Assembly (NCBI GenBank): GCA_902590695.1
Contig: CACIXR010000002.1
Coordinates: forward strand, 132,336-196,335
Source: an uncultured Alphaproteobacteria bacterium
Lineage (GTDB): Bacteria > Pseudomonadota > Alphaproteobacteria > HIMB59 > GCA-002718135
Direction: 5' to 3'
DNA length: 64,000 nt
Both the position numbers and the translations under genes were made by a program. The notes under the pieces are model-generated. The model had not been told where the DNA came from. It saw only the letters and a list, made by a program, of their open reading frames with translations, and did not search any database. Position 1 is the stretch's first letter. Each line of letters opens with the position of its first letter. Positions 3,970 through 36,735 of this stretch are shown here, in pieces.

Positions 3970-4000
3970 TCACCCTCATTCATTTTTTTTGGATCTCATT

Positions 4001-4381: not shown

Positions 4382-4382
4382 A

Positions 4383-4763: not shown

Positions 4764-4779
4764 AAGAAGGAGCATTTAA

Positions 4780-12586: not shown

Positions 12587-13477
12587 ATGAAAATCGGTAT
12601 TGATGTAGGCGGTACCAAAACTGAGGGTATTCTTCTAGATCCAAATGGAACTGAAATAGATAGAAAAAGAATTAATACTGAAAAAAGTTATGATGGAACA
12701 ATTAAGGGAATACTATCCATTATAAATCATTTTGAAGATAAACACGGCAAAGCAGAAACTGTTGGTATGGGAATGCCAGGAGCTATATCAAATGATACAG
12801 CTTTAATTAAAAATGCAAATTCTATATGGTTAAATGGCAAACCTTTTAAGCAAGATTTAGATAAAATTTTAAATAGAAATGTTAATTTGGAAAATGATGC
12901 TAATTGTTTTACTCTTTCTGAAGCGGTAGATGGAGCTGGTAAAGGGTTTGAAGTTGTTTTTGGAGTCATTATAGGAACTGGTGTAGGCGGAGGTATCAGT
13001 ATCAATCAAAAAGTAATTAGAGGTCGTAATAGTATAAGCGGAGAGTGGGGACACATAGTTTTGCCAAGTAGAACAGAAGATGAAAAAAAATATGTTAAAA
13101 AATGTTACTGTGGAAAAGATGGGTGCTTAGAGACCTATATATCTGGACCAGGCTTTTCATCTGTCTATAATTTACGTTGCAATAAAAATTATAATTCACA
13201 TCAAATTTTAGATGGTTTTAATAATAAAGAAAAAGATAGTATCTTTGCACTAAATCAATATGTAGATCATTTAGCAAGAGGCTTATCTCTAGTTTGTAAT
13301 ATTCTTGATCCAGATGTGATTGTTTTGGGTGGGGGTATGTCAAACATCGATTTTATTTACGAAAATATAAATGATGCTCTAAAAAAATATGTTTTTACAG
13401 ATACGCTTCACACTAAAGTTGTAAAAAATATTCATGGTGATTCAAGTGGAGTAAGGGGAGCAGCTTGGCTTTCCTAA
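12587..13477 (+). CDS. ROK-family sugar kinase (NagK/Mak-like)
   Basis: 296 aa. DVGGTK, ENDANCF, GEWGH and the zinc motif CYCGKDGCLETYISG. Confidence 0.8.
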   Translation: MKIGIDVGGTKTEGILLDPNGTEIDRKRINTEKSYDGTIKGILSIINHFEDKHGKAETVGMGMPGAISNDTALIKNANSIWLNGKPFKQDLDKILNRNVNLENDANCFTLSEAVDGAGKGFEVVFGVIIGTGVGGGISINQKVIRGRNSISGEWGHIVLPSRTEDEKKYVKKCYCGKDGCLETYISGPGFSSVYNLRCNKNYNSHQILDGFNNKEKDSIFALNQYVDHLARGLSLVCNILDPDVIVLGGGMSNIDFIYENINDALKKYVFTDTLHTKVVKNIHGDSSGVRGAAWLS

Positions 13478-14925
13478 ATACCACCCATAGATATATATTT
13501 AATAGTTAAATAATCATCAAGGCCATATCGAGAACCTTCTCTTCCCATTCCTGATTCTTTAACTCCACCAAAAGGAACTTCTGCAATTGTTGGTAGCCCA
13601 TTATTGATAGATACAATTCCATATTCAAGTGCTTCAGCAACTCTCCAAATTCTTCCTATGTCTCTTGAATAGAAATATGAAGCTAATCCATATGGTGTAT
13701 CATTAGCCATTTTAATCACCTCATCATCACTAGAAAATTTATAAAGAGGAGCAACGGGCCCAAATGTTTCTTCAAAAGTAATTTTTGCCTTTGTAGATAC
13801 ATTTGAGAGAACAGTTGGTTGATAGAAATTCCCACCAAGTGAATGAACATCTCCACCAATTGCTATTTTAGCTCCTGTATTTACTGCATCTTGTACATGA
13901 TCAATTACTTTTTCTAAAGAGGATTGATCAATTAAAGGACCAGACGCAATTCCATCTTCAAGTCCATTACCCACTGTTATTTTACTGACTTCATTTGTAA
14001 ATTTCTCTAGGAATTCATCATATATGTTTTTATGCACAAATATTCTATTTGAACAAATACATGTTTGACCACTATTTCTAAATTTACTTTGAAGTGCGCC
14101 TGCAACGGCTTCATCCATATCTGCATCATCGAAAACAATAAAGGGTGCATGACCACCAAGTTCCATAGAAACTTTTTTTACTGTTGAGGCACTTTGCTCT
14201 AAAAGTATTTTTCCAACCTCCGTAGATCCTGTAAAAGAAATTTTTCTTACAATTGGGTTACTTGTTAGCTCTTTACCAATCTCACTTGCCGATCCAGTGA
14301 TTACATTAAATACACCATCTGGAAAACCCGCTTCTTTAGCAAGTACTGCTACAGCTAGTGCTGAATAGGGTGTTTGGCTAGCTGGTTTAACAACAGTAGT
14401 ACAACCAACTGCTAGAGCAGCTGCACATTTTCTTGTAATCATTGAATTTGGAAAATTCCATGGAGTTATTGCTCCAACAACACCAACAGGTTGTTTAATT
14501 ATTACAATTCTTTTTCCAGGTCTTGGATCAGGAACTATATCACCATACACTCTTTTTGCTTCTTCAGCATAGAATTCAATGTATGAAGCACCCATTAGTA
14601 TTTCACCCTTTGCTTCAGCTAGAGGTTTACCTTGCTCAATAGTCATGATTTTAGCTAAATCATCTGCATTTTCTGTAATTAGCTCACCCCATTTTTTAAG
14701 AATAACAGATCTTTCTTTCGCAGTAGTTTCTTTCCAAGTTTGGAAAGCAGTATTGGCATCATCTACAGCTTTTTTAGTTTCTGAAACTGAGCATTTTGGG
14801 ACTTTGCCAATAATTTCAAGAGAGGCTGGATTATTTACCTCAAGAGTTTCACCTGAAGAACTGTCAACCCATTCTCCATTTATAAAACATTTTTGTTTAA
14901 AGAGTGATTTGTTATTTAATTCCAT
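13474..14925 (-). CDS. gabD: NAD(P)-dependent succinate-semialdehyde dehydrogenase (GabD-like ALDH)
   Basis: 483 aa. N-terminus FINGEWVDSSSGETLEVNNPA, ELGGHAP and catalytic GQTCICSNR. Overlaps the convergent ROK gene by 4 nt. Confidence 0.85.
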   Translation of the reverse strand: MELNNKSLFKQKCFINGEWVDSSSGETLEVNNPASLEIIGKVPKCSVSETKKAVDDANTAFQTWKETTAKERSVILKKWGELITENADDLAKIMTIEQGKPLAEAKGEILMGASYIEFYAEEAKRVYGDIVPDPRPGKRIVIIKQPVGVVGAITPWNFPNSMITRKCAAALAVGCTTVVKPASQTPYSALAVAVLAKEAGFPDGVFNVITGSASEIGKELTSNPIVRKISFTGSTEVGKILLEQSASTVKKVSMELGGHAPFIVFDDADMDEAVAGALQSKFRNSGQTCICSNRIFVHKNIYDEFLEKFTNEVSKITVGNGLEDGIASGPLIDQSSLEKVIDHVQDAVNTGAKIAIGGDVHSLGGNFYQPTVLSNVSTKAKITFEETFGPVAPLYKFSSDDEVIKMANDTPYGLASYFYSRDIGRIWRVAEALEYGIVSINNGLPTIAEVPFGGVKESGMGREGSRYGLDDYLTIKYISMGGI

Positions 14926-14968: not shown

Positions 14969-16072
14969 ATGACAATAGTTAATTCTTGGAATGAATGGGA
15001 TCCATTAAAACATGTTATAGTTGGAGCAGTTGAAAACGCCAACATACCTCCAATGGAACCAGCGCTTGAACCAAAAATAAGTAAAGATAGTGGTATGGCA
15101 GGATCTCACGGACCACGTTCACAGGAGTCAATTGATAAAGCAAATATACAATTAGAAAACTTTGTTAAAATATTAAATTCCTTAAATATAAAAGTTGATA
15201 GACCAACACCTATTGACTTTTCTCAGAGTATCGAGACACCCGATTGGTCTAATGATGGTATGTTTGGTTGTATGCCTCCAAGAGATGTTATTCTTACTGT
15301 AGGAAATGAAATGCTTGAGGCGCCCATGTCTTACAGATGTAGATGGTTTGAGTACCTTGCTTATAGACCACTACTTGAAAAATATTATTCAGAAGATAAA
15401 AATATGAGATGGGAGTCGGCACCTAAACCAAGATTAACAAATCAATCGTATAAGTCTAATTATCTTCCTGAAGGTATAACGGAAGAAGAACGATATAAAA
15501 AAATCGAAAATAGAGACATGATATTGACAGAAAAAGAACCACTTTTTGATGCAGCAGAAATTTTACGTTTTGGAAAAGACCTTTTTTATCATAACAATTT
15601 TACATCAAATTTAAGTGGTTTAGATTGGTTAAGAAGACATTATCCAAATCATCGTGTTCATCAAATTAATTTACCAGGTGATTTAATTCCAACTCACATT
15701 GATGCATGTTTTACTCCTATTAAACCAGGAGTTATAATTATTAATCCGAATAGAAAAATATCATCAGAGCAAAGAAAAATTTTCGATGATAATAAATGGG
15801 AAATTCATGAGGCAGCACCTTCCATTCATAATAGTCCACCACCTATGTGTTATTCATCAATCTGGTTATCAATGAACGTTTTGATAATTGATCCTAAAAC
15901 TATATGCGTCGAGGCAACTGAAGAAAAAATGATCAAACAAATGGAAAGTTTTGGATTGGATGTTATTCCAGTTCCTTTTAGAGACGTTTATGCATTTGGA
16001 GGTAGTCTACATTGTGCCACTACTGATGTTCATAGAGAGGGTGAGTGTGAGGATTATTTTCCAAATCAATAA
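14969..16072 (+). CDS. Amidinotransferase (glycine/inosamine amidinotransferase family)
   Basis: 367 aa. N-terminus VNSWNEWDPLKHVIVG and the C-terminal catalytic-Cys motif GGSLHCATTDVHREG resemble AGAT/StrB-type enzymes. Confidence 0.8.
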   Translation: MTIVNSWNEWDPLKHVIVGAVENANIPPMEPALEPKISKDSGMAGSHGPRSQESIDKANIQLENFVKILNSLNIKVDRPTPIDFSQSIETPDWSNDGMFGCMPPRDVILTVGNEMLEAPMSYRCRWFEYLAYRPLLEKYYSEDKNMRWESAPKPRLTNQSYKSNYLPEGITEEERYKKIENRDMILTEKEPLFDAAEILRFGKDLFYHNNFTSNLSGLDWLRRHYPNHRVHQINLPGDLIPTHIDACFTPIKPGVIIINPNRKISSEQRKIFDDNKWEIHEAAPSIHNSPPPMCYSSIWLSMNVLIIDPKTICVEATEEKMIKQMESFGLDVIPVPFRDVYAFGGSLHCATTDVHREGECEDYFPNQ

Positions 16073-16827
16073 TGTATAGTTTTAATCAAAATAATTTTAA
16101 AGCCAATTTACATAATACAAACTTTTCTAGAATTGGTATAATTACACTATCAACTGATTTTACCATTGAGCAAGATTTTAGAAAAATTTGCCATAATTTA
16201 CCAGTAGATCTATTTTTTAATAGGATACCTTTTTTAAATCCTCTAACTCATGAAAATTATATGAGGATGGCTGATCATCTTACAGAAACAACAAACCAAA
16301 TACTACCCAATGAAAAAATACAAGTTGTAGCGTATGGATGTACTTCAGGTACTATTGAAATTGGTGAAAAAAGAATAAGATCTGAAATCTTCAAGGCTAA
16401 ACCTGATGCTTTAATTACTACACCTATTACAGCAGCTGTCAAAGCACTTAAATTGTTAAACCATAAAAAAATTGCTGTTCTTACTCCTTATCCAAAAGAT
16501 GTTAATGTTAAAGTTTACAAATATTTAATTGATAGTGGATTTGAAATTAAATCATTTAGTTCGTTTAATTTACATTATGACTCGGAAATTGCCAAAGTTA
16601 CTCATGATAGTTTAAAGCAAACAATTTCCTCAATTGATTTAACAGATGTTGATAGTATTTTTGTTTCTTGTACTGCATTAAAAGTAATTGATATTATCGA
16701 AACATTAGAGTTAAAATTAAGCACAGATATCATTTCAAGTAATCAAGCTATTATTTGGGATTCATTAAGGTTATCTAATATTAATCAAAAAATTGATGGT
16801 TTTGGTAACCTATTTAAATTACATTAA
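16072..16827 (+). CDS. Asp/Glu-racemase superfamily protein (maleate isomerase / arylmalonate decarboxylase / EutA-like)
   Basis: 251 aa. Both Cys motifs are present (AYGCTSGT and VSCTAL), and the C-terminal SSNQAIIWDSLR is typical of this family. Confidence 0.7.
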   Translation: MYSFNQNNFKANLHNTNFSRIGIITLSTDFTIEQDFRKICHNLPVDLFFNRIPFLNPLTHENYMRMADHLTETTNQILPNEKIQVVAYGCTSGTIEIGEKRIRSEIFKAKPDALITTPITAAVKALKLLNHKKIAVLTPYPKDVNVKVYKYLIDSGFEIKSFSSFNLHYDSEIAKVTHDSLKQTISSIDLTDVDSIFVSCTALKVIDIIETLELKLSTDIISSNQAIIWDSLRLSNINQKIDGFGNLFKLH

Positions 16828-16839
16828 ATAGGGTTTAAA

Positions 16840-17802
16840 TTGATTACACTTCAACAAATACAAGGTGCACATAAGAAAATTTTACCTTATGTTAATTATA
16901 CACCATTAATTAATTCTAATTTCTTATCAAAAAATACTACAGTAAAACTAAAGTTAGAAAATTTTCAAATCACTGGTTCATTTAAGTTAAGAGGTGCTGT
17001 TAATAAACTTCTTTCTTTAAGTGAAGATGACAAAAGCAAAGGAGTCATCGCAGTCTCTACAGGCAATCATGGTAAAGGCGTTGCTTATGCTTCAAAAGTA
17101 TTGGGTATTCAATCAACAATATACATGTCTTCAATGGTTCCAGAATACAGAAAAGAGGCTATTGAAAAATTAGGAGCTAAAGTAGAAATTATTGGAAAGA
17201 ATAGTGATGAAGCTGATTTGTATGCTAAACAAATTGCGAAAGAAAAAAATATCCCATTAATTCATCCTTTTGATGATGAAGATATTATAATAGGCCAAGG
17301 TACAGTTGGACTTGAAATGCTTAATGAATTTCCTGAAGTTGATACAGTAATTATCCCAACATCTGGTGGCGGTCTTATATCTGGAATAGCACAAGCTATT
17401 AAACTTCAAAAACCTGACACAAAAATTATTGCCGTATCTATGGAAAGAGGTCCTTCAATGTATGAAAGTTTAAAAGAAGGTAAGCCTGTTGATGTAGAGG
17501 AAACTGAAACTTTAGCTGATTGTTTAGGGGGTAGTATTGGTTTAGATAATAAATTTACATTTAATATTGTACAACAATACGTTGATGACTTTGTTTTAGT
17601 AAGTGAAGAAAAAATAGCTGAAGGAATTAGAATAAATTTTTTAGAACATAAAATTGTATCAGAAGGTGCTGCAGCAACAAGTGTAATGGTTGTTAAAGAA
17701 AAATTAACATCGCACTTAGGAAAAAATATAATTTGTTTAATTTGTGGTGGAAATATTGACTCTGAACTATTTAACAAAGTTTTAAGCCATGCTCATCCTT
17801 AA
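16840..17802 (+). CDS. PLP-dependent threonine/serine dehydratase-like enzyme (EutB-like)
   Basis: 320 aa with a TTG start. PLP-Lys motif TGSFKLRGA, then STGNHG and a SGGGLISG loop. Confidence 0.8.
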   Translation: MITLQQIQGAHKKILPYVNYTPLINSNFLSKNTTVKLKLENFQITGSFKLRGAVNKLLSLSEDDKSKGVIAVSTGNHGKGVAYASKVLGIQSTIYMSSMVPEYRKEAIEKLGAKVEIIGKNSDEADLYAKQIAKEKNIPLIHPFDDEDIIIGQGTVGLEMLNEFPEVDTVIIPTSGGGLISGIAQAIKLQKPDTKIIAVSMERGPSMYESLKEGKPVDVEETETLADCLGGSIGLDNKFTFNIVQQYVDDFVLVSEEKIAEGIRINFLEHKIVSEGAAATSVMVVKEKLTSHLGKNIICLICGGNIDSELFNKVLSHAHP

Positions 17803-18763
17803 TAAAAATGATATTATTCAACATGTAGATTTAAATAAAAATCTCATCCCAATAATAGAAGACGCATTTAATAGTTTATCAAAGGGATTGGTAATGATGC
17901 CACCTATAATGAGAATTGATATTGAAAAATATCATGGTGAATCAGATGTTAAAGCTGCATACGTTGAGGGTCTTGATAGTTTTGCAATAAAAATCGCTTC
18001 AGGTTTTTTTGATAATCCAAAACTTGGTTTACCATCTAGTAATGGACTGATGGTTTTATTAGACTCAAAGACTGGAGTTGTAAAATCTGTTTTATTGGAT
18101 GAAGGTTATCTTACAGATACTAGAACAGCTATAGCAGGAGCAATAGCTACAAAATATTTATCAAATCAAAATGCTAATTCTGTTGGTATTATTGGGGCTG
18201 GAATTCAAGCCAAATTACAACTTCAAGCAATAATGTTAGTTAGAAAAATTAATAAAATAATAGTCTGGTCAAGAGATCAAATAAAAGCAAATCAATTTAT
18301 AAAAAGTTTTAAAGATTTAGATTTAGATTTGCATGTAGCTTCTTCTTGCAAAGAATTGGCAAGCTTATCAGAAATAATCGTTACAACGACTCCTAGTAAA
18401 AAACCACTTTTAGAATTTGATTGGATAAATAAAGGAACTCACATAACAGCAATGGGATCAGATGCTGAACAAAAAAATGAATTAGATCCTCATATGTTAA
18501 AATATTGTGATCAATATGTGCCTGACAATCAATTACAAACAAGTGTTTTGGGTGAATTACATCATGCATTAAAACAGAATATAATTTCTTCCAAAGAAAA
18601 ATTTAATGAACTTGGCGATATTATTAGTGATCCAAGCTTAGGAAGAAAAAATAATGAAGATATAACGATATGTGATTTGACAGGAACTGGCGTACAAGAT
18701 ACTGCAATAGCAAGGTTTGCCTATAATCTTTGTAAAACAAATAATTTAGGCATCAATATTTAA
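17789..18763 (+). CDS. Ornithine cyclodeaminase / mu-crystallin family protein (EutC / pyrroline-2-carboxylate reductase-like)
   Basis: 324 aa. LTDTRTAIAGA and the Rossmann motif GIIGAGIQAK. Overlaps the upstream gene by 14 nt. Confidence 0.85.
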   Translation: MLILNKNDIIQHVDLNKNLIPIIEDAFNSLSKGLVMMPPIMRIDIEKYHGESDVKAAYVEGLDSFAIKIASGFFDNPKLGLPSSNGLMVLLDSKTGVVKSVLLDEGYLTDTRTAIAGAIATKYLSNQNANSVGIIGAGIQAKLQLQAIMLVRKINKIIVWSRDQIKANQFIKSFKDLDLDLHVASSCKELASLSEIIVTTTPSKKPLLEFDWINKGTHITAMGSDAEQKNELDPHMLKYCDQYVPDNQLQTSVLGELHHALKQNIISSKEKFNELGDIISDPSLGRKNNEDITICDLTGTGVQDTAIARFAYNLCKTNNLGINI

Positions 18764-18766
18764 TTT

Positions 18767-20209
18767 ATGAGTCAAGCAATAATAAAAAAAACGTCTGATT
18801 ACTTCAAATCAAAAGGAGTTGTCTTACCTAGTATAAGTGAACTTCAAGATCCTCAAATTATTAATGATGATATTAAAAATTCTCTAAAAAAAATAAATAA
18901 TAATGATATCAATCCTCTTAACCTTTTTAGAGTTCATTGGTTTAATAAAAGAGATCAATCAGGTTTTGGAAATGAGCCTGAATATATTGTTCTTCCAACA
19001 GAATTTACAGGTGTTAAGGCAAAGATAATTGTAAATATGGGACGATATTTTCCCTTAATAACAGCTCATAAAGTTTTGGCAGCTTATGGTTGTTTGCTTC
19101 CAAGAATATTGAATGGCACTTTTGATTATGAAAAACATAAAGCAGTTTGGCCTTCAACAGGAAATTATTGCAGGGGTGGAGTGGCAATATCTCGGATAAT
19201 GGGTCTTAATAGTATTGCAATACTTCCTGAAGGAATGAGTAATGAGAGGTTTGAATGGTTGAATAATTGGGTTGAAGATAAAAAAAATATTATAAAGACA
19301 AAAGGCACAGAAAGTAATGTTAAAGAAATCTATGATGCTTGCAATGAATTAAAAAAAGATAATCAAAATGATATCATAAATCAATTTGATGAGTATTATA
19401 ATTACGGTATTCATCGTTCTGTAACCGGTCCATCGTTTGAAAAATCATTTCTTAAAGTTAAAGGTAACAGTAATTTGACTCCTAGGTTTTACGTAAGTGC
19501 TTCAGGATCAAGCGGTACTCTAGCAGCAGGAGATTATCTTAAAGACAAATTACAGACGAAGATTGCAGTTGTTGAAGCTTTGGAGTGTCCAACATTGCTT
19601 CATGGAGGTTATGGAGAACATAATATACAAGGTATTGGTGACAAACATGTTCCCCTTATTCATAATGTAATGAATACAGATTTTGTCGTAGATGTTTCTG
19701 ATCAAGCTACCAATAATCTAAATATGATTTTTAATACTGAAATAGGAAAAAAGTTTTTAATTGAGAAAAAAAATTTTGAGCCTGATTTTGTTTCTCGACT
19801 TCCCGAATTTGGCTTTTCAGCAATAGCAAATATATTGGCATCAATAAAATTAGCTAAATATATGGATTTAAATAGTGATGATGCAATTATAACGGTTGCT
19901 ACAGATGGTGCAGATTTATATATGTCAGAATTAAATAAGACCATTGCTCATTTTAAAAATAATTATGATGAAATAGTTTGTGCTGAACTATTTGGAAAGC
20001 ACTTATCAGGAATATCTACTGATAATATGCTAGAACTTTCTTACATGGACAAGAAAAGAATATTTAATTTAGGGTACTTTACTTGGGTAGAGCAACAAGG
20101 TGTAAGTCTTGAAGAATTTGAAAAAAGAAAAGATCAAAAATTTTGGAATTCACATTATGATTATATGCTTTCTCTAGACAATAAGATTAAAGAATTTAAT
20201 AATATGTAG
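18767..20209 (+). CDS. Fold-type-II (Trp-synthase-beta-like) PLP-dependent enzyme, unusually long, reaction unknown
   Basis: 480 aa. Candidate PLP-Lys in ITAHKVLAAYG, WPSTGNYCRGG and the Gly-rich loop SASGSSGTLAAG. The roughly 80-aa N-terminal and roughly 100-aa C-terminal extensions are unassigned. Confidence 0.6.
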   Translation: MSQAIIKKTSDYFKSKGVVLPSISELQDPQIINDDIKNSLKKINNNDINPLNLFRVHWFNKRDQSGFGNEPEYIVLPTEFTGVKAKIIVNMGRYFPLITAHKVLAAYGCLLPRILNGTFDYEKHKAVWPSTGNYCRGGVAISRIMGLNSIAILPEGMSNERFEWLNNWVEDKKNIIKTKGTESNVKEIYDACNELKKDNQNDIINQFDEYYNYGIHRSVTGPSFEKSFLKVKGNSNLTPRFYVSASGSSGTLAAGDYLKDKLQTKIAVVEALECPTLLHGGYGEHNIQGIGDKHVPLIHNVMNTDFVVDVSDQATNNLNMIFNTEIGKKFLIEKKNFEPDFVSRLPEFGFSAIANILASIKLAKYMDLNSDDAIITVATDGADLYMSELNKTIAHFKNNYDEIVCAELFGKHLSGISTDNMLELSYMDKKRIFNLGYFTWVEQQGVSLEEFEKRKDQKFWNSHYDYMLSLDNKIKEFNNM

Positions 20210-20212
20210 GTT

Positions 20213-21367
20213 ATGAAAACTCAGTCATTACATAACCAATTAGTAGAATGGCGTCATGATCTTCATATGCATCCACAATTAAGTTTTGAAGAAGAGTATG
20301 CTTCAGCAAAAGTGTCAACACTTCTAAAAGAGTTTGGAATAGAAGTTCATTCTGGTATTGCCAGAACTGGAGTAGTTGGAATTTTAAAAAAAGGAAATAG
20401 TTCAAAATCAATAGGTATAAGAGCTGACATGGATGCTCTTCCTATACAAGAAACTAATAAGTTTAGTTATAAGTCCAAGTTTGATAACAGAATGCATGCA
20501 TGTGGACATGACGGTCACACCACTATGTTATTAGGTGCAGCAAAATATTTATCAGAAAAAGGTAACTTTAACGGTACGGTATATTTTATTTTTCAACCTG
20601 ATGAAGAAAATACATTTGGTGCAAGAACAATGATAGATGAAGGATTGTTTGATAAATTTAACATTGATGAAGTTTACGCTATGCACAATATTCCTAACAT
20701 GGAAATTGGAACATTTGGTACAAGAAATGGAGCTATTACAGCCAGCGAAAATTTATTTGAAATTGAAATAAAAACTAAAGGTGGGCACGCTGCATTACCT
20801 CATATGGGGGTAGATGCAATAACTGTTGGTTCTCAAATAGCTGTAGCACTTCAATCGATAGTGTCTAGGAAATTAAATCCAGCAGACAATGGTATAGTGT
20901 CTATTACCGAATTTATAACCGATGGTAAGAAAAATGTTCTGCCAGGTATGGTAAAAATGACTGGTGACGCGAGAGCTTTATCAAAAGAAACAAATGAAAA
21001 AATTGCTTCAAAAATGTTACAAATTGTCGAAGGGATTTGCAATGCACATGGTGTTAATGGTAGTGTTAAATATGAAACAGCCTGTCCTGTAACTTTTAAT
21101 TCAAAAATTCAAACTGAGTCTGCAACAAAAGCTGCAGTTTCTTTACTCGGTATTGATAAATGTAATGGTAATATAGAACCACGTTTATTCTCAGAAGATT
21201 TTTCTGTTATGGCAAATGAAAAACCTGGCTGCTTTGTTTTAATGGGTAACGGAACATCAGAGCAGCATTCCAGACCTTTACATGCTGATAGTTATGATTT
21301 TAATGACGAATTATTAGTCATAGGTTCTTCATATTGGACTGAATTGGTAGAACAACAATTAAAATAA
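20213..21367 (+). CDS. M20D amidohydrolase (hippurate hydrolase / N-acyl-L-amino-acid amidohydrolase-like)
   Basis: 384 aa. LVEWRHDLHMHPQLSFEE, ADMDALP, HACGHDGH and QPDEE metal motifs. Confidence 0.85.
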   Translation: MKTQSLHNQLVEWRHDLHMHPQLSFEEEYASAKVSTLLKEFGIEVHSGIARTGVVGILKKGNSSKSIGIRADMDALPIQETNKFSYKSKFDNRMHACGHDGHTTMLLGAAKYLSEKGNFNGTVYFIFQPDEENTFGARTMIDEGLFDKFNIDEVYAMHNIPNMEIGTFGTRNGAITASENLFEIEIKTKGGHAALPHMGVDAITVGSQIAVALQSIVSRKLNPADNGIVSITEFITDGKKNVLPGMVKMTGDARALSKETNEKIASKMLQIVEGICNAHGVNGSVKYETACPVTFNSKIQTESATKAAVSLLGIDKCNGNIEPRLFSEDFSVMANEKPGCFVLMGNGTSEQHSRPLHADSYDFNDELLVIGSSYWTELVEQQLK

Positions 21368-22525
21368 ATGTTTTCTGAAAACTTAAATAAACTAAAGAAA
21401 AAAATGTCTGAGAACAATATTGATCTCTCAATTATAACTGATGATGACTCGATATATTATTTCACAGGATACCATGACTTCCTTCATATGGATTTTTATC
21501 GACCAACATTATTAGTTGTTTCAAATGATCATAAAACTTATTTAATTACACCTCTTCTTGATGTTTTATTAGTACCAGAATCTTGTCCTGTAGATATGGT
21601 TGAAACATGGAATGATGGTATTGGAAATGAATGGAGAGAATTATTACCTCAAATCATCAATCAGCATAAAAATATTTTTATTGAAAAATTTAAAATTAAC
21701 CCAATGGTTAAGAGTTATTTAGACGAATTACTTCAAGAGCATCCTGGGGATTTAACCAAATTAATAGATAATATAAGAATGATTAAATCTAATCATGAAT
21801 TGAATATAGCTCGTCATGCTGGCGAAGTTGGTATGGCTATGATGGAGGCAGCAAAAAAAACAATTGGCCATAATGTTCCTGAGTATGAGGTTGCACTTGC
21901 ACAATCACAAGCTGGAACAAGAAAAGCTGCAGATCTTTTAAAAGAATTTTATCCTGATAATATCAATATGTCTCCAAATATTCACTTTTTACCTGTTATG
22001 ACATCGGGTCATGATTTACCTAAAACTCACCATCGTGCTTCAACCAAAATTATAAAAAAAGGTGATCCCGTATTCGTATGTTATTGTGGTTCTACAAATT
22101 TCCATAGGTTTAAATTAGGTTTTGACAGAATATTTTGGGTAGAAGAAATTCAATCCGATGAACAAATAAAAGCTTTTGAGACTGCAGTTAAATCTCAAAA
22201 AGCTGCTCTTGAAATTCTTGGCCCTGGAGTAACAGCTGAAGAAGTTCATGCTGCTTATGCAGATACTATACAGTCTGAGGGATACCCTTATCCTACATTT
22301 CGATGTGGAAGAGGTACAGGCTTTAGCTTTTTAGAGGAACCACAATTAGTAGTTGGTAATAAAACAGTACTGGAGCCTGGAATGGTATTTGCCGTTGATG
22401 GCGGGGCAAGTGCAAATAATTTTAGATCACAAGTTGGTGATAGTTTTATTATAACAAAAGATGGATACGAACAAATTACACATCATTCTAAAAATATTGA
22501 TGACTTAATAATTCCACATGGATGA
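21368..22525 (+). CDS. M24 pita-bread-fold protein with creatinase-like N-domain (creatinase / ectoine hydrolase DoeA(EutD)-like rather than a metallopeptidase)
   Basis: 385 aa with two-domain architecture. By eye, the canonical M24B metal-ligand positions are mostly substituted (VFVCYCG; CGRGTGFSFLEEP; AVDGG; VGDSF). Confidence 0.7.
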   Translation: MFSENLNKLKKKMSENNIDLSIITDDDSIYYFTGYHDFLHMDFYRPTLLVVSNDHKTYLITPLLDVLLVPESCPVDMVETWNDGIGNEWRELLPQIINQHKNIFIEKFKINPMVKSYLDELLQEHPGDLTKLIDNIRMIKSNHELNIARHAGEVGMAMMEAAKKTIGHNVPEYEVALAQSQAGTRKAADLLKEFYPDNINMSPNIHFLPVMTSGHDLPKTHHRASTKIIKKGDPVFVCYCGSTNFHRFKLGFDRIFWVEEIQSDEQIKAFETAVKSQKAALEILGPGVTAEEVHAAYADTIQSEGYPYPTFRCGRGTGFSFLEEPQLVVGNKTVLEPGMVFAVDGGASANNFRSQVGDSFIITKDGYEQITHHSKNIDDLIIPHG

Positions 22526-23543
22526 AATCACAGTATTTAACACACATTGCTGCGGTGAAATTGGGGATGTCGTAACTGGAATTAAAGGCTTGAAGTTTAA
22601 TTCACCTGAGGAAGCTTCTAAAAAACTTTTTTTAGATAAAAAATGGAGAAATTTTTTTTTAAATGAACCTCGGGGAGGGGTCTTTAAACATTGTAATATT
22701 ATTTTAGAGCCTTCAAATAAAAATGCAGATGCTGGATTTGTAATCATGGAACCAGAAGATAATCCTCCAATGAGCGGATCAAATGCAATTTGTGTAACGA
22801 CAGTCTTATTAGAAAAAAATATTGTTCAAATGAAATATCCTAAAACCATGCTTACACTTGAAGCTCCCGGTGGTTTAATAAAAGTTGTTGCTGATTGTGA
22901 AAATAAGAAAGTTAAAAGTGTCACTTTAACTAATCTTGCCTGCTTTGCAGATAAAATAGATGTAGATTTAAAGACTAAAAATTATGGTACAATTAAAGTA
23001 AGTACTGCTTTTGGTGGTGACAGTTTTTTAATTTGTAATGCTAGTGATTTTAATCTTAAAATTGAACCAAAGAATGCAAATAAATTTGTAAATGTTGCTA
23101 AAGAATTATTGAAAGAAGCAAACGCATCTATAGGATTTGCACATCCTACTATTAAAGGATTAGACTATCTTTCTTTTTGCCAATTTATTGAACCCTTAAA
23201 AAAAAATAATCAATCATTACTTACAGGATTAAATACAGTTGTTATACGACCTGGAAAACTTGATCGTTCACCATGTGGTACAGGCACTTCAGCAAGATTA
23301 GCAGTAATGAAAGAAAAAAATGAAATACAAATAAATGAAGAATTTATATCAAAGTCTATTATAGGATCTTCATTTAAAGCAAGTATTGAAAAGGAAATTA
23401 AAATTAATAACAAAAATTGTATTATTCCAAAAATAACAGGTAGTGCATTTATTACTGGAAAACAAAGTTTATATATAGATAAGCACGATCCTTTTCCAGA
23501 AGGTTATAGATTAAATGACACATGGCCAGATTCATCAAGTTAA
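22518..23543 (+). CDS. Proline racemase superfamily protein (Ser/Cys variant; hydroxyproline epimerase/dehydratase-like)
   Basis: 341 aa. Contains DRSPCGTGTSARLA, the second catalytic Cys motif. The first catalytic position reads PMSGSNAI, with Ser where Cys is expected. Confidence 0.85.
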   Translation: MDEITVFNTHCCGEIGDVVTGIKGLKFNSPEEASKKLFLDKKWRNFFLNEPRGGVFKHCNIILEPSNKNADAGFVIMEPEDNPPMSGSNAICVTTVLLEKNIVQMKYPKTMLTLEAPGGLIKVVADCENKKVKSVTLTNLACFADKIDVDLKTKNYGTIKVSTAFGGDSFLICNASDFNLKIEPKNANKFVNVAKELLKEANASIGFAHPTIKGLDYLSFCQFIEPLKKNNQSLLTGLNTVVIRPGKLDRSPCGTGTSARLAVMKEKNEIQINEEFISKSIIGSSFKASIEKEIKINNKNCIIPKITGSAFITGKQSLYIDKHDPFPEGYRLNDTWPDSSS

Positions 23544-23619: not shown

Positions 23620-24885
23620 ATGACAAAATTTAATGCCTGGAATGTAATTAAAAACGGTTTAAATGGTCAGTCTTATTGGACTAGACAATGGCGTGATCCA
23701 GAACCAAAAAGTAGTTATGACGTTGTAATAATTGGAGGAGGTTTACACGGTCTTGCCACGGCATATTATTTAGCAAAGAATCATAATATAAAAAATGTAG
23801 CTGTTTTAGAAAAAGGCTGGATTGGTGGAGGAAACGCTGGACGTAATACAACTATTGTAAGATCAAATTATATGATGCCAGGCAACCACGAATTTTATGA
23901 ACATTCTTTAAAGTTATGGGAAAATTTAAGTCACGAATTAAATTATAATGTAATGTTTAGCCAACGAGCTCATGTCTCGTTATTTCATAGCCCTGGTGCT
24001 AAAGATTCAGTTTCACGGATTTATAATATTATGCGACTCCATGGAACTGATGCAGAACTTTGGGATTTAAAAACTTTAAAGAAAAAAATTCCGCATTTAA
24101 ATTATCATAATTCTAGATTTCCAATACTTGGAGCTGCAGTTCAAAAAAGAGCAGGTAATGCAAGACACGATGCAGTTGCATGGGGTTATGCAAGGGCTGC
24201 AGATACATTAGGTGTAGACATTCTTCAAAATTGTGAAGTTACAGGTTTTACAAGAAAGAATGGAAATATTGAAAGTATTCAAACTTCAAGAGGAATTATA
24301 AAAGGAAAGAAAATAGGATTTGCTGTTGCAGGCAATACTTCAGTATTATGGCAAATGGCAGAATTAGGCAACCTGCCAATTGAATCCCATAAACTACAAG
24401 CATTTGTATCTGAGGCTGTTAAACCACTTCTAGACCAGGTTGTTGTTTATGGTGTAGGTGGTGCGCATTTCTATATATCGCAGTCAGATAAAGGAAGCAT
24501 GGTGTTTGGTGGTGATCTTGACTGGTATAAATCATATGCTCAAAGAGGAAATCTTCCTATGGTTCAAGATGTTGCCGAAGCGGCCATGGCAATATTCCCT
24601 TCACTTGGAAGAATAAGATTACTTCGTCATTGGGCAGGTGTTATGGACATGACAATGGACGGATCATTTTTTATTTGTAAAACGCCAATATCTAATCTCT
24701 ATTTAAATGCTGGTTGGAACTATGGTGGTTTCAAAGCTAGTCCTGCATCAGGTTGGTATTTTGCTGACTTAATTGCAAATGAAAGCCCCCATAACTACGT
24801 GCAAAATCATAATTTAGAAAGATTTGAAAAAGGTATCAATATTGATGAACGTGGCGCAGGACCTGATCCAAAATTGCACGGTTAA
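23620..24885 (+). CDS. soxB: Heterotetrameric sarcosine oxidase subunit beta
   Basis: 421 aa. FAD motif VVIIGGGLHGLATAYYLA. Followed by the delta, alpha and gamma subunits in canonical order. Confidence 0.9.
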   Translation: MTKFNAWNVIKNGLNGQSYWTRQWRDPEPKSSYDVVIIGGGLHGLATAYYLAKNHNIKNVAVLEKGWIGGGNAGRNTTIVRSNYMMPGNHEFYEHSLKLWENLSHELNYNVMFSQRAHVSLFHSPGAKDSVSRIYNIMRLHGTDAELWDLKTLKKKIPHLNYHNSRFPILGAAVQKRAGNARHDAVAWGYARAADTLGVDILQNCEVTGFTRKNGNIESIQTSRGIIKGKKIGFAVAGNTSVLWQMAELGNLPIESHKLQAFVSEAVKPLLDQVVVYGVGGAHFYISQSDKGSMVFGGDLDWYKSYAQRGNLPMVQDVAEAAMAIFPSLGRIRLLRHWAGVMDMTMDGSFFICKTPISNLYLNAGWNYGGFKASPASGWYFADLIANESPHNYVQNHNLERFEKGINIDERGAGPDPKLHG

Positions 24886-25170
24886 ATGATTAGAATCAAT
24901 TGTCCTTATTGTGGTGAAAGAGATCATAGTGAATTTAGTTACGGAGGAGATGCAACAATCAATTATCCTTCGTTAGATGCATCAGAGAAAGATTGGACTG
25001 AAGCTATATTTTTCAGAAAAAATATAAAAGGTTTTCAATTTGAAACATGGCATCATTCTAATGGATGTAGAATGTGGTTGGTAGTTGAACGTTCTACTGT
25101 CACTCATGAAATAAAAAGTGTCAAACCATGCCATCCAGATTTACAGAAGGTTGTAGAAAATAATAAATGA
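24886..25170 (+). CDS. soxD: Sarcosine oxidase subunit delta
   Basis: 94 aa. INCPYCGERDHSEFSYGGD and HSNGCRMW form a zinc-ribbon-like motif typical of SoxD. Confidence 0.9.
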   Translation: MIRINCPYCGERDHSEFSYGGDATINYPSLDASEKDWTEAIFFRKNIKGFQFETWHHSNGCRMWLVVERSTVTHEIKSVKPCHPDLQKVVENNK

Positions 25171-28124
25171 AGACAAGAAGAATAGATAACTATGGAAAAA
25201 TTAATAGAGATAAAATTTTATCCTTTAGTTGGGATAAAAAAAATTACAAAGGTTTTGAAGGAGATACTCTAGCATCAGCATTACTTGCAAATAATATTGG
25301 TATAGTTGGTAGAAGTTTTAAATATCATAGACCAAGGGGAATATTTTCTAGTGGAGTCGAGGAATCTGGTGCTTTAGTTACTATTGGTTCAAAAGATAGA
25401 AGAGATCCAAATGTAAGAGCAACAACACAAGAATTATATAATGGTTTAGAAGCAAGTGGTCAAAATGCATTTCCAAATGTAAATTTTGATCTAGCTGGAA
25501 TAAATAATTACTTAGGTAGGTTTTTTGCAGCTGGTTTTTATTATAAAACTTTTATGGGAATACCTCCACTTGAATGGGGTAAAGGAACAGCCATATGGAT
25601 GTTTTTTGAAAAATTTATTAGAAAAGCTGCGGGAATGGGAAGTTCTTCTGGGTTACCTGATCCAGATACTTATGAGCACGCTCATGATTTTTGTGATTTA
25701 ATTGTTGTAGGATCAGGACCTGCTGGTGTTGCAGCTGCAATAGAGGCAGCAGAAAAAAAATTAGATGTTATTTTAGTTGAGCAAGATAGTCTTATTGGAG
25801 GAAATCAACTTGCAGAAAATGATTTTGATAACTCACAAATTAAAAATCAACTTGAAAATCTAGGCATAAAAATAATGACTAGAACTACTGCATTCGGATT
25901 ATATGATAATTGCGTTGTTGGTTTATTAGAGAGAGTAACAGACCATATATCAGCACCAAATGTAAACTTTCCACGCCAAAGATTTTGGACCATTAGAGCA
26001 AAGCATATAATTGTTGGTGCTGGAGCAATTGAAAGACACATTGCATTTAATAATAATGATATTCCTGGTGTAATGACCGTAAATGCATCAAAGCATTATT
26101 TGAATAGATATGGTGTACTCACTGGAAAAAGTATTGTGATAGCTACAAATAATGACTCTGTTTATGAAACAGCACATCAATTATCAGAAGCTGGGGCTAA
26201 TGTAACTGTTCTTGATTCACGAACTAATTTTGAAATTGAGACAAATAAAAGTTTTGAAATTAGAAAAGGGTATGTGCCTTATAATATTAATGGTTCAAAA
26301 AAAATTGATAGTTTAGATATATCAAAAAGTGAAACTATTAATAAATCTGAAACTATAAATTGTGATCAGGTTCTATTATCAGGTGGCTGGTCACCTGCTG
26401 TACATTTGTTATCTCACAGAGGCGTAAAGCCTAAATGGGATTATAAAAATGCTTGTTTTTTACCAAGTGACACAAAAGAAAATATTACAATGGTAGGTTC
26501 TTCTAGAGGTTTATGGAATAAAAATGATTGTATTGCTTCTGGGATAGCTGGAACTACTAGTGCGTTGAACCGTTTAGGTATTTCTAAAACAAATTATTTT
26601 TTCCCAAAACCTGGTGGATGGAAAAATCCAATACAACCACTTTATGAAGTAAAATATAAAAAATCTAGATCAAAAAGTTTTGTAGATTATCAACATGATG
26701 TAACGACAGATGACGTAAGACTCGCACATCGTGAAGGTTTCATTTCAGTAGAGCATCTTAAAAGATACACAACTTTAGGTATGGCAAACGATCAAGGAAA
26801 AATGGGAAATATCATTGGATTATCTTTAATGGCTGAACTTTTAAATAAAGAAATTCCAGAAGTTGGAACTACTGTTTTTAGACCTCCTTATACTCCTGTA
26901 TCTATAGGTGCCTTAAGCGGAAGAAATGTTGGAAAACATTTTAGGCCGTTAAGAGTAACACCAATGCATCAATGGAATATTGATCATGGTGCAAAAATGA
27001 TTGAAGTTGGATTGTATCAAAGACCTTGGTATTATCCAAAAGAAAATGAAACTTTAAGTGACTCTTATATAAGAGAAGCATCAACAGTAAGAAAAACAGT
27101 TGGAATTTGTGATGTAACATCACTAGGCAAAATTGCTATTCAAGGACCAGACTCTAACGAATTTTTAAATAGAATTTATTCGAATGGTTTTTCAAAACTA
27201 CAAGTTGGAAAAGCTAGATATGGTATCATGTTGCGTGATGACGGTATTGTAATGGATGATGGCACATCTTGGAGATTAGCAGAAAATGAATATTTTATGA
27301 CGACGTCTACAGGTGAAGCTGCAAAAGTGATGTCATGGTTAGAAGAATTACTTCAAACTAGATGGACAGATCTTAATGTTAATGTGACTAGTGTTTCTGA
27401 ACAATGGGCAGGCGTATCAGTTGCAGGACCTAAATCTAGAGAAGTTCTCAATAATTGTGTCGATGATTCTTTTGTTATAACTAATAATAACTTGCCTTTT
27501 ATGGGTGTTACTTCAACATTTCTTAAAGGTAATATTCCTTGTAGAATTGCAAGAATTAGTTTCTCAGGTGAATTAGCTTTTGAAGTTTATGTCAAATCAG
27601 ATTTTGCTAATACAATGATGGACTTACTTTGGGAAAATGCAAAAAAATATGATGGATGTTTATATGGATTAGAAGCTTTAGGTGCACTTAGAGTTGAAAA
27701 AGGTCATGTAACAGCTGCTGAGCTTGATGGAAGAGTAACTATTGATGATGCAGGTTTAAGCAAAATGGCATCTACAAAAAAATCATATATTGGAAGCGCA
27801 ATGAGAAAACGAGGAGTGTTAAAAAATAATGATCGAGAAATTCTTGTAGGTTTCTTTCCTGTAAACTTAAAGGAAACTTTTAATGCTGGAACTATTGTCT
27901 GTGAAAAAAATAATATTAAAGGACAGGGTATCGGAAGAATTACCTCAGTTACTTATTCTCCAGAACTTGGACATTGGATTGGATTAGGATTTGTCAAAGG
28001 TGGTTTAGATAAATGGAAAGATACCAATTTAGTTGGGGCAGATCCTGTAAGAAATAAACAAATGAATTTAAAAGTTGTTTCACCACATATGATTGATCCT
28101 AAAGGAGAACGAATGTATGCATAG
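25167..28124 (+). CDS. soxA: Sarcosine oxidase subunit alpha
   Basis: 985 aa. Dinucleotide motif IVVGSGPAGVAAAIEAA and a C-terminal GcvT-like folate-binding domain. Overlaps soxD by 4 nt. Confidence 0.9.
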   Translation: MKTRRIDNYGKINRDKILSFSWDKKNYKGFEGDTLASALLANNIGIVGRSFKYHRPRGIFSSGVEESGALVTIGSKDRRDPNVRATTQELYNGLEASGQNAFPNVNFDLAGINNYLGRFFAAGFYYKTFMGIPPLEWGKGTAIWMFFEKFIRKAAGMGSSSGLPDPDTYEHAHDFCDLIVVGSGPAGVAAAIEAAEKKLDVILVEQDSLIGGNQLAENDFDNSQIKNQLENLGIKIMTRTTAFGLYDNCVVGLLERVTDHISAPNVNFPRQRFWTIRAKHIIVGAGAIERHIAFNNNDIPGVMTVNASKHYLNRYGVLTGKSIVIATNNDSVYETAHQLSEAGANVTVLDSRTNFEIETNKSFEIRKGYVPYNINGSKKIDSLDISKSETINKSETINCDQVLLSGGWSPAVHLLSHRGVKPKWDYKNACFLPSDTKENITMVGSSRGLWNKNDCIASGIAGTTSALNRLGISKTNYFFPKPGGWKNPIQPLYEVKYKKSRSKSFVDYQHDVTTDDVRLAHREGFISVEHLKRYTTLGMANDQGKMGNIIGLSLMAELLNKEIPEVGTTVFRPPYTPVSIGALSGRNVGKHFRPLRVTPMHQWNIDHGAKMIEVGLYQRPWYYPKENETLSDSYIREASTVRKTVGICDVTSLGKIAIQGPDSNEFLNRIYSNGFSKLQVGKARYGIMLRDDGIVMDDGTSWRLAENEYFMTTSTGEAAKVMSWLEELLQTRWTDLNVNVTSVSEQWAGVSVAGPKSREVLNNCVDDSFVITNNNLPFMGVTSTFLKGNIPCRIARISFSGELAFEVYVKSDFANTMMDLLWENAKKYDGCLYGLEALGALRVEKGHVTAAELDGRVTIDDAGLSKMASTKKSYIGSAMRKRGVLKNNDREILVGFFPVNLKETFNAGTIVCEKNNIKGQGIGRITSVTYSPELGHWIGLGFVKGGLDKWKDTNLVGADPVRNKQMNLKVVSPHMIDPKGERMYA

Positions 28125-28680: not shown

Positions 28681-28754
28681 ATAGATTATCTTAGGGTAAC
28701 GGAAACTGGTTATAAACTAATTACCAATGTATTTAGTGATTTGCATATAGCAAA

Positions 28755-31105: not shown

Positions 31106-31159
31106 TTATTAAATATGTATAGTTAATTTTGGTTTTTTCATTAATAGAAGTATTAATCT

Positions 31160-33006: not shown

Positions 33007-33071
33007 TTTTTAAATTAAGTTTTGACTATTTGTTTTCATGCAGTTATTCAAGCTTCATTACAAAATATATT

Positions 33072-34160: not shown

Positions 34161-34291
34161 TTATACTTTTTTCTTTATATTTAGCCAAAATTTTTTACTT
34201 TTACCCCTTTTTTTTCATTTCACGACATGTTATTACACAATCATTACGGACATAATCTTAAGATTAATTAATAAAAAATAGGAGGATATAT

Positions 34292-35395: not shown

Positions 35396-35428
35396 GCTTG
35401 ATAAAATAAATTTTGTAATTTAATCTAA

Positions 35429-35456
35429 AGGCGAGAATTATCTCGCCTTTTTATTT
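35429..35456 (+). terminator. Intrinsic terminator/attenuator hairpin after the SBP gene
   Basis: AGGCGAGA-ATTA-TCTCGCCT stem-loop followed by TTTTATTT, read directly from the sequence. Confidence 0.65.
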
Positions 35457-36732: not shown

Positions 36733-36735
36733 CAA

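Follow-up and report, generated by a model that had tools for sequence, protein, structure and literature searches.

Ectoine is a leading phytoplankton exometabolite (PMC13012070), and transporters for ectoine and hydroxyectoine have been reported in marine SAR11 genomes (PMC6018831, PMC10030771). SAR11 also carries two operons for heterotetrameric sarcosine oxidase (sox), whose division of labour is unclear (PMC3870248). We analysed a 64,000-nucleotide stretch of DNA, referred to below as the window (contig CACIXR010000002.1 of assembly GCA_902590695.1, positions 132,336 to 196,335), from an uncultured SAR11-type alphaproteobacterium, in which eight tightly packed genes, P1 to P8, lead into soxBDAG. 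In order, the eight encode an AGAT-type amidinotransferase, proteins resembling EutA, EutB and EutC, a pyridoxal phosphate (PLP) enzyme, an M20 amidohydrolase, an M24-family protein and a proline racemase homolog (ProR); a gene for a GabD-type aldehyde dehydrogenase (ALDH) diverges from them. On balance, and with modest confidence, we read these twelve genes, the ALDH gene and an ancestral thirteenth gene, doeA, as a SAR11-specific supraoperon without a regulator that joins several catabolic modules for nitrogen-rich zwitterionic solutes.

Among described systems, the canonical ectoine/hydroxyectoine clusters share with this locus genes of the EutA, EutB and EutC types in the alphaproteobacterial order, an adjacent ALDH of the Ssd/GabD type and, in the arrays of sister SAR11 genomes, a true DoeA/EutD. 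They differ in encoding EutE/DoeB, in whose place SAR11 has an M20 enzyme, and in having Atf/DoeD, the regulators EnuR or AsnC, and an Ehu, Ueh or Tea transporter. In SAR11, moreover, doeA follows the sox genes (and is deleted in the window), and the eut genes stand among AGAT, P5, P7, ProR and soxBDAG. Creatinase (PDB 1CHM) with sarcosine oxidase offers a second parallel, P7 being a metal-free M24 protein with a Creatinase_N domain that has a sarcosine-oxidase-family enzyme encoded downstream. A third is provided by AGAT/GATM and CyrA of vertebrates and cyanobacteria, to which P1 is homologous over its full length.

Conservation of the array in SAR11

Loci for comparison, numbered L001 onward, came from a scan of species-representative genomes and from look-ups of encoding contigs. 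The order ROK kinase gene, gabD (minus strand), P1 to P8, soxBDAG recurs in the independent SAR11-type assemblies L003-L008, L088, L090 and L091, and the ALDH gene keeps its position in L003, L005-L008, L088 and L090. Identity of the cassette proteins to those of the window is 78-100% in L003-L006, L008 and L090, 75% (P5) and 68% (ProR) in L088, and about 60-76% in L007/L091. The preliminary description of this stretch had treated the genes as a unit that related genomes should share, and gene order is indeed kept, far beyond chance, down to protein identities of about 60-75%. Pairwise ratios of non-synonymous to synonymous substitution (dN/dS) range from 0.04 to 0.14 for every gene, including in the comparison between two genomes that lack doeA, indicating purifying selection. 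The 90%-identity cluster of each cassette protein comprises 1,300-2,500 member sequences, with members named "Pelagibacteraceae bacterium" by NCBI; these names, together with a GC content of about 30%, assign the window to SAR11. Because the order is kept across SAR11 lineages and the dN/dS values are this low, the cluster is real, old within SAR11, and functional.

The map of open reading frames (ORFs) agrees base for base with the layout first described: eight packed, co-directional genes, soxBDAG next to them, and the divergent ALDH gene (Table 1). The family identities proposed for P1 to P8 were likewise borne out by comparisons with Pfam, NCBIfam and the PDB. Successive genes from P1 through P8 are spaced by -1, +12, -14, +3, +3, 0 and -8 nt, a gap of +76 nt precedes soxB, and 43 nt part P1 from the ALDH gene. 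Family scans of the window ORFs detected no regulator or transporter inside the twelve-gene array, in keeping with its earlier characterization as regulator-less, and an Rfam scan of the whole window returned one tRNA only and no riboswitch near the cassette. GC content of the window is about 30%, and in such DNA scans for promoters and terminators, which yielded fewer matches than shuffled sequence, are uninformative.

Two of the SAR11 loci depart from this picture in detail. In L091 (MarineAlpha5_Bin9, a divergent lineage; positions 3788-4877) ProR and soxB are separated by two additional genes, for a DUF4396 protein and a DsbA/thioredoxin-like protein. In L093 (an ERZ28548069 contig, 'pilon'-polished) P5, ProR, soxA and soxG are split, probably by frameshift errors rather than as pseudogenes.

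Table 1. Features of the locus, in window coordinates
Feature	Position	Strand	Basis and remarks
ALDH, GabD/Ssd-type, NAD(P)+	13474..14925	-	Pfam Aldedh, TIGR01780; candidate DoeC/Ssd equivalent
P1, AGAT-type amidinotransferase, first cassette gene	14969..16072	+	Homology to human AGAT
P2, EutA-like; Asp/Glu racemase, maleate isomerase, arylmalonate decarboxylase superfamily	16072..16827	+	PF17645
P3, EutB-type PLP dehydratase, threonine-dehydratase fold	16840..17802	+	NF005680 match
P4, EutC-type; ornithine cyclodeaminase/mu-crystallin family	17789..18763	+	NF006141 and TIGR02992 matches
P5, 480-aa fold-type-II PLP enzyme	18767..20209	+	Weak CysK-like matches
P6, M20D N-acyl-amino-acid amidohydrolase	20213..21367	+	TIGR01891; candidate N-acetyl-diaminobutyrate-type deacylase
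P7, metal-ligand-free M24 protein with Creatinase_N domain	21368..22525	+	Read-out of the five ligand positions
P8 (ProR), proline racemase superfamily, Ser/Cys dyad	22518..23543	+	PF05544
soxB	23620..24885	+	
soxD	24886..25170	+	
soxA	25167..28124	+	
soxG	to 28680	+	
doeA 3'-end remnant, 68 nt	28691..28758	+	Alignment to L004
PotF-like ABC transporter: ATPase, SBP_bac_8, two permeases	33030..37632	+	Pfam matches

The deletion of doeA and the ectoine-type genes

In L088 the gene directly after soxG is a true doeA, which scores 391 bits against Halomonas DoeA (PDB 6TWK). Intact doeA is found at this site in seven assemblies (L004, L006, L088, L091/L007, L092, L093 and L094). Positions 28000-28691 of the window align to L004 11601-12292, and from 28691 onward the alignment continues at L004 13409; the window thus carries a clean deletion of 1,116 bp that has eliminated the start codon and the bulk of doeA, leaving a remnant with the last ~20 codons and the stop codon. 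L008 and L090 lack doeA with an identical junction, and L004 retains it though its cassette proteins are 95-100% identical to those of the window. The ancestral array is therefore gabD on the minus strand and, diverging from it, AGAT, eutA, eutB, eutC, P5, M20, P7, ProR, soxBDAG and doeA. The presence or absence of doeA is a recent polymorphism among near-identical genomes. Homologs of doeA number in the thousands in marine metagenomes, one of them named "Ectoine hydrolase" for MarineAlpha5_Bin9.

The genes downstream of doeA in L093 and L094 are those of the window, with DUF3726, a 554-aa ORF, an M19 dipeptidase, EamA and an ABC (ATP-binding cassette) transporter. In the window the first three of these occupy 28755-32146, the DUF3726 gene and the 554-aa ORF (without a Pfam or NCBIfam match) on the minus strand and the M19 membrane-dipeptidase-family gene on the plus strand; they are kept there in L093, L094 and L090. 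In L091 (11179-12303) the gene after doeA scores exactly at the cutoff for DmdA, the dimethylsulfoniopropionate demethylase, at 410 bits.

The presence of doeA in sister loci supports the ectoine association of the locus, and it follows that P7 is not the EutD/DoeA equivalent. The resemblance to ectoine clusters drawn in the preliminary description consequently stands in part: the Eut-like trio and the GabD-type ALDH hold, and doeA in the sister loci strengthens the comparison, whereas the assignment of P7 as an M24 EutD/DoeA-like hydrolase fails, since P7 is 23% identical to the true DoeA (that of L088) coexisting with it in sister SAR11 genomes. The scar of doeA in the window had been overlooked.

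Scores for the trio are graded. P4 passes the NF006141 "cyclodeaminase" model (452 bits against a cutoff of 408), reaches 413 of the 472 bits required by the EutC model TIGR02992, and is 50-51% identical to EutC annotated on rhizobial plasmids, in canonical ectoine clusters. P3 scores 378 bits on the EutB model NF005680 (cutoff 413) and is 43-48% identical to annotated rhizobial EutB. P2 scores 208 bits on the EutA model TIGR02990 (cutoff 318); it is 34% identical to EutA, and canonical EutA, sox-linked proteins like arylmalonate decarboxylase (AMDase) and racemase-like proteins linked to dimethylglycine dehydrogenase are all alike 31-35% identical to it. The ALDH scores 729.7 bits on the succinate-semialdehyde dehydrogenase model TIGR01780, above its cutoff of 646, and is a candidate for the DoeC/Ssd function.

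Other parts of a canonical ectoine cluster were sought in vain. A tblastn search with Phyllobacterium DoeB matched nothing in the window or in twelve SAR11 loci, which agrees with the earlier suggestion that an M20 enzyme takes the place of DoeB; P6 aligns end to end with the DoeB2 model NF038260, at 310 bits against a cutoff of 550. Nor was there a tblastn match to an Atf/DoeD transaminase in the window and the SAR11 loci examined, the query being a partial Phyllobacterium gene of the aspartate aminotransferase family that flanks a eut cluster and was taken as Atf. None of the window ORFs scanned belonged to an aminotransferase family, and the reported lack of a diaminobutyrate transaminase holds for the window, though the gene for such an enzyme may lie in another part of the genome. 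Neither a transporter of the Ehu, Ueh or Tea type nor an EnuR or AsnC regulator was found among or next to the twelve genes; the transporters closest to them are the PotF-like ABC system (33030-37632) and a TRAP system homologous to 4UAB.

The M20-M24 pair, SoxBDAG and the remaining enzymes

All canonical ligands at the five metal-binding positions of the M24 family are replaced in P7, which has C, G, R, D and G there. P7 scores 60.7 bits against creatinase, below its best prolidase match, 37.8 bits against DoeA (6TWK), and 57 bits on TIGR02993, for which the cutoff is 613; the last two values and the low identity to SAR11 DoeA rule it out as a DoeA. From these comparisons P7 is best placed in a distinct M24 family, neither DoeA nor a close relative of creatinase. 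Its upstream neighbour, P6, scores 319 bits on TIGR01891 (cutoff 154). Downstream, the sox genes have the order B-D-A-G and encode four subunits; SoxB scores 606 bits on TIGR01373 (cutoff 529) and 410 bits against the characterised TSOX beta subunit 2GAG_B, and the orthologs in L088 and L090 include SoxD and the GCV_T domain that binds folate. We accordingly annotate soxBDAG, by homology, as a putative heterotetrameric enzyme of the sarcosine oxidase family.

The best matches to P7 (54-56% identity) and P6 (49-50%) outside SAR11 share replicons, namely a Roseovarius pelagicus plasmid (NZ_CP106737) and pSR3 of Aminobacter sp. SR38. On these, and in an unrelated alphaproteobacterial metagenome-assembled genome (L021), an uncharacterised cluster has a first operon of a P7-type M24 gene, an "arylmalonate decarboxylase"/EutA-like gene, soxBDAG and a Rieske oxygenase gene. 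Beside it lie a divergent LysR gene, an ABC transporter and an AsnC gene, and a second operon encodes a P6-type M20 enzyme, a diaminopropionate (DAP) ammonia-lyase (above its cutoff) and a second M24 protein (M24b) that keeps all metal ligands. EhuA, EhuC and EhuD of the transporter are annotated as ectoine-type, and its binding protein falls just under the EhuB cutoff of 191 bits (174 in L021, 169 in L037). Across L021, L086 and L087, P7 orthologs (53-56% identity) stand in an operon with the EutA-like gene and soxBDAG, with SoxB 75-76% and SoxA 57-59% identical to the window's, and the M20 proteins of these loci and of L037 are 48-50% identical to P6. In L021, P5 is inserted as well. Of this cluster, the SAR11 array has neither the transporter nor the two regulators, and it is also without the Rieske oxygenase, the DAP ammonia-lyase and the second, metal-dependent M24 protein; it has EutB and EutC instead, and ProR stands between P7 and sox.

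A metagenome scan seeded with the Roseovarius P7 ortholog yielded 80 further non-SAR11 loci. In about 33 of these the gene immediately preceding P7, in the same orientation, encodes a P6-type M20 enzyme. Where the sequence extends far enough beyond P7, an AMDase-like gene comes after it in 13 of 59 loci and soxB in 11 of 45. AGAT, ProR, EutB/C, DoeA and P5 were found in none of the 80. The M20 and M24 genes are therefore the most conserved unit, reminiscent of the deacetylase and hydrolase pair DoeB/DoeA, and the link of P6/P7 to sox is ancestral and not an accident of SAR11. The sox connection noted in the preliminary description is thus real, and for the M24 gene it persists outside SAR11.

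Other neighbourhoods of P7 and P6 relatives were recorded. In seven metagenome loci (L124, L127, L140 and four more) the P7 ortholog is followed by genes for a DUF1989 protein and a D-Tyr-tRNA deacylase; DUF1989 proteins are linked to urea and guanidine metabolism, an association that would be consistent with P7 acting as an amidinohydrolase. Homologs of P7 at about 40% identity, in S. meliloti and Paraburkholderia, adjoin an Asp/Glu-racemase-family gene, an amidase and an ABC transporter, and gave no functional lead. In L111 and L154 the P6/P7-type pair follows a PotF-like ABC transporter, which in L111 immediately precedes the genes M24-M20-P7; the window's own PotF-like transporter resembles that of L111 in its permease of about 430 aa (window 35455-36732, 50% identity) and its substrate-binding protein (38%), a weak hint that it might import the substrate of the M20/M24 module.

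A variant eut cluster on the symbiotic plasmid pNGR234a (L085, 171132-192100) comprises AsnC, ehuBCDA, an M20 gene, eutB, eutC and two M24 genes that are not doeA, without eutA, doeA or doeB. As in SAR11, an M20 enzyme stands in place of DoeB and M24 proteins of the "Xaa-Pro peptidase family" are encoded next to eutBC. The two systems differ in that pNGR234a has its own transporter and regulator and lacks sox, AGAT and ProR. Its M20 and M24 proteins, 28% and 25% identical to P6 and P7, were ruled out as orthologs and are better regarded as analogous; the cluster may serve another ectoine-like pathway.

P1 has no Pfam or NCBIfam match, and is a full-length homolog of human AGAT (1JDW/1JDX; E = 5e-77), named "glycine amidinotransferase" in some sources. 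The catalytic triad (Cys407, His303, Asp254) is kept, as are the residues contacting guanidinium and carboxylate (Asp170, Asp305, Arg322, Ser354/355), whereas the lid residues Asn300 and Met302 read as Ile and Thr in the alignment. Unlike AGAT/GATM and CyrA, P1 heads a catabolic-looking array and has no methyltransferase partner. The closest AGAT outside SAR11, from Photobacterium (49% identity; the record is unannotated), is without cassette partners. Because of this, and because neither gene occurs at any of the 80 P7 loci, AGAT and ProR look like SAR11-specific additions.

P8 scores 328 bits on PF05544 and 417 on NF047722 (cutoff 550), with 4K8L, 1TM0 and 4K7G as its best PDB matches. The motifs MSGSN and SPCGTG of the Ser/Cys dyad are present in all SAR11 orthologs, down to 60% identity. 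In the Enzyme Function Initiative study of this superfamily, Zhao et al. (2014) found Ser/Cys enzymes to be 4-hydroxyproline 2-epimerases (4HypE), and cluster 3 to mix epimerase with trans-3-hydroxyproline dehydratase (PMC4113996). The dyad of P8 matches the 4HypE type (cluster 9) and its overall sequence is nearest the heterogeneous cluster 3, so that it is probably of the hydroxyproline 2-epimerase or the 3-hydroxyproline dehydratase type.

P5 matches CysK-like structures in the PDB at about 50 bits, and Lys102 is invariant in alignment A1. Orthologs with 49-56% identity occur in Proteobacteria, Acidobacteriota, Actinomycetota, Chloroflexota and Myxococcota, very rarely together with any other cassette gene; outside SAR11, P5 adjoins P6- or P7-type genes only in L021, L030 and L037. 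Its commonest neighbours encode a selenium-dependent xanthine dehydrogenase (above cutoff), an SsnA-like aminohydrolase, carbamate kinase, a carbamoyltransferase, a second PALP protein (474 aa) and DAP ammonia-lyase, a setting that suggests the breakdown of N-heterocycles. Over L009-L082 the P5 family is apparently an unannotated member of purine/N-heterocycle clusters of the ygeW/X/Y-ssnA-xdhD type. In L001 and L002 (Bosea and Rhizobium plasmids) P5 orthologs lie beside exporters of the TauE/SafE family, in Bosea also near a thiamine pyrophosphate-binding enzyme and a TRAP (tripartite ATP-independent periplasmic) transporter, and a link to sulfonate or sulfite chemistry is possible.

A proposed mosaic of solute modules and its alternatives

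Outside SAR11 the parts of the array occur as separate modules: eutBC with doeA, M20 with M24, M24 with the EutA-like gene and sox, and AGAT, ProR and P5 each alone. Elsewhere these modules come with transporters and regulators, all of which are missing from the SAR11 array. Functions for the modules can be proposed from the protein families. In a module of the ectoine/hydroxyectoine type, DoeA would open the ectoine ring to give N-acetyl-diaminobutyrate, P6 would act as the deacetylase in DoeB's stead, EutB (a PLP dehydratase), EutC (an imine reductase or cyclodeaminase) and P2 would process hydroxylated intermediates, and the GabD/Ssd-type ALDH would oxidise the resulting semialdehyde. Since doeA is deleted, this module in the window could not start from ectoine by the canonical enzyme. 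In a second module P7 may cleave an amidine, guanidine or cyclic-ureide C-N bond of an ectoine-like or N-methylated solute, the most likely chemistry given that creatinase and ectoine hydrolase are the only characterised metal-free M24 enzymes. P6 would then deacylate the product, and SoxBDAG would move an N-methyl group to tetrahydrofolate, yielding glycine if the substrate were sarcosine. The add-on enzymes, which are fixed in SAR11 alone, would contribute the exchange of an amidino group between arginine or ornithine and a small acceptor (AGAT), an epimerisation or dehydration of the hydroxyproline type (P8), and the reaction of the PLP enzyme P5.

Several observations weigh against this interpretation. 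The function of EutABC is merely proposed even in model organisms (PMC13188858). P2 and P3 fall below the NCBIfam equivalog cutoffs and P4 below the EutC-specific one, and the ectoine branch as seen is incomplete, the window having neither a diaminobutyrate transaminase nor an ectoine transporter. Purifying selection on eutABC and P6 persists in two genomes that share the doeA deletion, which suggests that these genes have a role independent of DoeA, perhaps with another substrate, and weakens a strict assignment to ectoine. The linkage of P7 to sox is confined to a minority of the non-SAR11 loci, and the tight spacing and the kept order of twelve to thirteen genes could signify a single integrated pathway.

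The preliminary description took the last course, seeing in the locus one cassette for one cyclic imino or amidino amino acid; we do not favour it, on the ground that its parts form separate modules outside SAR11. In its full form this alternative has the eight enzymes and then Sox acting in sequence on one cyclic imino/amidino or guanidino amino acid, with glycine as the end product. The very small gaps, the invariant order across SAR11 at 60-100% identity, the lack of internal regulators and the purifying selection on every gene even after the loss of doeA all agree with it. Against it, the components are never together as a set outside SAR11, where the modules have transporters and regulators of their own, and sister genomes include in this cluster a true doeA, whose substrate is known. 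SAR11 is known, besides, to fuse unrelated genes into compact arrays, and we regard a dedicated single pathway as unlikely. The opposite extreme, in which adjacency is meaningless and streamlining has packed unrelated genes of amino acid metabolism together, draws on the short intergenic regions throughout the window and on gshAB, bioY and the ROK kinase gene upstream, which are spaced just as tightly. This we hold to be very improbable: unrelated bacteria keep subsets of these genes together (eutBC with M20 and M24 on pNGR234a, M20 with P7, P7 with the EutA-like gene and sox, P5 with M20 or M24), and doeA lies at the end of the same array.

Two further readings build on particular enzymes. 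In a route for creatine or guanidinoacetate, P7 would be a creatinase-type amidinohydrolase, converting creatine to sarcosine and urea and feeding SoxBDAG, AGAT would run in reverse (guanidinoacetate and ornithine to glycine and arginine) or swap the amidino group with sarcosine, and P4 would handle ornithine. That P7 is metal-free, has a Creatinase_N domain and is sox-linked in several lineages speaks for this route, as do the retained catalytic and arginine-binding residues of AGAT, the DUF1989 neighbours of P7 (a family associated with urea and guanidine metabolism), the annotation of a "creatinase" as core in SAR11 subgroup Ia (PMC3686209) and the labelled creatine that forms from sarcosine in marine communities by no known enzyme (PMC9321204). 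Yet P7 is no closer to creatinase than to prolidases, its most conserved association is with an M20 partner and it keeps company with racemase-like proteins, neither of which creatine breakdown needs; AGAT is linked to neither P7 nor sox outside SAR11, and the window has no urease or urea-handling gene. The creatine route accordingly has a low probability in our estimate. The other reading has P8, P4 (as a pyrroline-2-carboxylate (Pyr2C) reductase) and the ALDH degrade 3- or 4-hydroxyproline or their N-methyl or betaine forms, with Sox stripping N-methyl groups. Membership of P8 in the proline racemase superfamily is strongly supported and its dyad is kept, Pyr2C reductases of the ornithine cyclodeaminase family accompany such enzymes (PMC4113996), and Tucker et al. 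(2025) count genes for deamination of hydroxyproline, proline and ornithine among SAR11 traits (PMC12636525). P4, however, is clearly of the EutC type (452 bits, against 69 bits to LhpI), the cassette encodes no D-hydroxyproline dehydrogenase or pyrroline-4-hydroxy-2-carboxylate deaminase, P8 was not found next to P7, sox or eut outside SAR11, and the route would account for no more than two or three of the eight genes, which makes a hydroxyproline pathway decidedly improbable. The single-pathway, creatine and hydroxyproline readings each account for some of the genes, and all are weakened by the module-wise distribution outside SAR11.

A more far-reaching version of the mosaic is doubtful, though worth stating. 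In it P6/P7, the EutA-like protein and SoxBDAG would constitute a widespread marine pathway that takes an ectoine-like or N-methylated cyclic amidine, guanidine or ureide to glycine and folate-bound one-carbon units, fused in SAR11 to the breakdown of ectoine/hydroxyectoine and to an amidinotransferase moving amidino groups between arginine and small acceptors like sarcosine or glycine. If so, the locus would supply the enzyme behind the sarcosine-derived creatine of Boysen et al. (2022), and a glycine auxotroph would gain several routes from osmolytes to glycine on one unregulated transcript.

The surroundings of the array are of mixed character. Upstream genes are of the housekeeping kind (lipB, mgtE, gshA, gshB, bioY and the ROK kinase gene). 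Downstream, at 33030-40296, the PotF-like ABC transporter (its binding protein scores 242 bits against PDB 8JV1) is followed by an oxidase of the DAO family, like D-amino-acid dehydrogenase, and a convergent gene for an ALDH like betaine-aldehyde dehydrogenase; the position of the transporter downstream of the cluster is kept in L091-L094. The region 40357-48140 encodes a TRAP transporter (DctQ, DctM, DctP) and then a glutamine-synthetase-like protein, an ALDH and an iron-dependent alcohol dehydrogenase. The TRAP binding protein scores 432 bits against 4UAB/4XF5, which are TRAP proteins that bind ethanolamine or aminopropanol and are connected with a gamma-glutamyl route to glycine, and the region may constitute a second glycine-yielding route in the window. 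As a close homolog of these proteins, and not of TeaA or UehA, the TRAP transporter (40357-43371) was ruled out as an ectoine importer. The genes at 48143-63392 are sugar-related and unconnected with the cassette: a galactarate/altronate-dehydratase-family protein, three GFO/IDH/MocA oxidoreductases, a TauD-family dioxygenase, a GHMP kinase, a GH20 hexosaminidase and a sugar-type ABC binding protein.

The literature we searched contains no description of this locus as an ectoine-type cluster and none of the doeA polymorphism. Closest are the generic traits listed by Tucker et al. (2025), among them deamination of hydroxyprolines, proline, ornithine and threonine (PMC12636525), wording that corresponds to the generic annotation of P8, P4 and P3. 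The labelling of creatine from sarcosine observed by Boysen et al. (2022) was left without a known enzyme (PMC9321204), for which the sox-adjacent AGAT is a speculative candidate.

SAR11 is the most abundant heterotroph of the surface ocean, and the locus points to untested routes by which it may use nitrogen-rich algal osmolytes. The doeA polymorphism between near-identical genomes is a natural experiment on ectoine use, and the P6/P7/sox module represents an uncharacterised pathway that SAR11 has in common with rhizobia and roseobacters. Should any branch lead to glycine, the array would bear on the conditional glycine/serine auxotrophy of SAR11 and on the cycling of organic nitrogen in the ocean.

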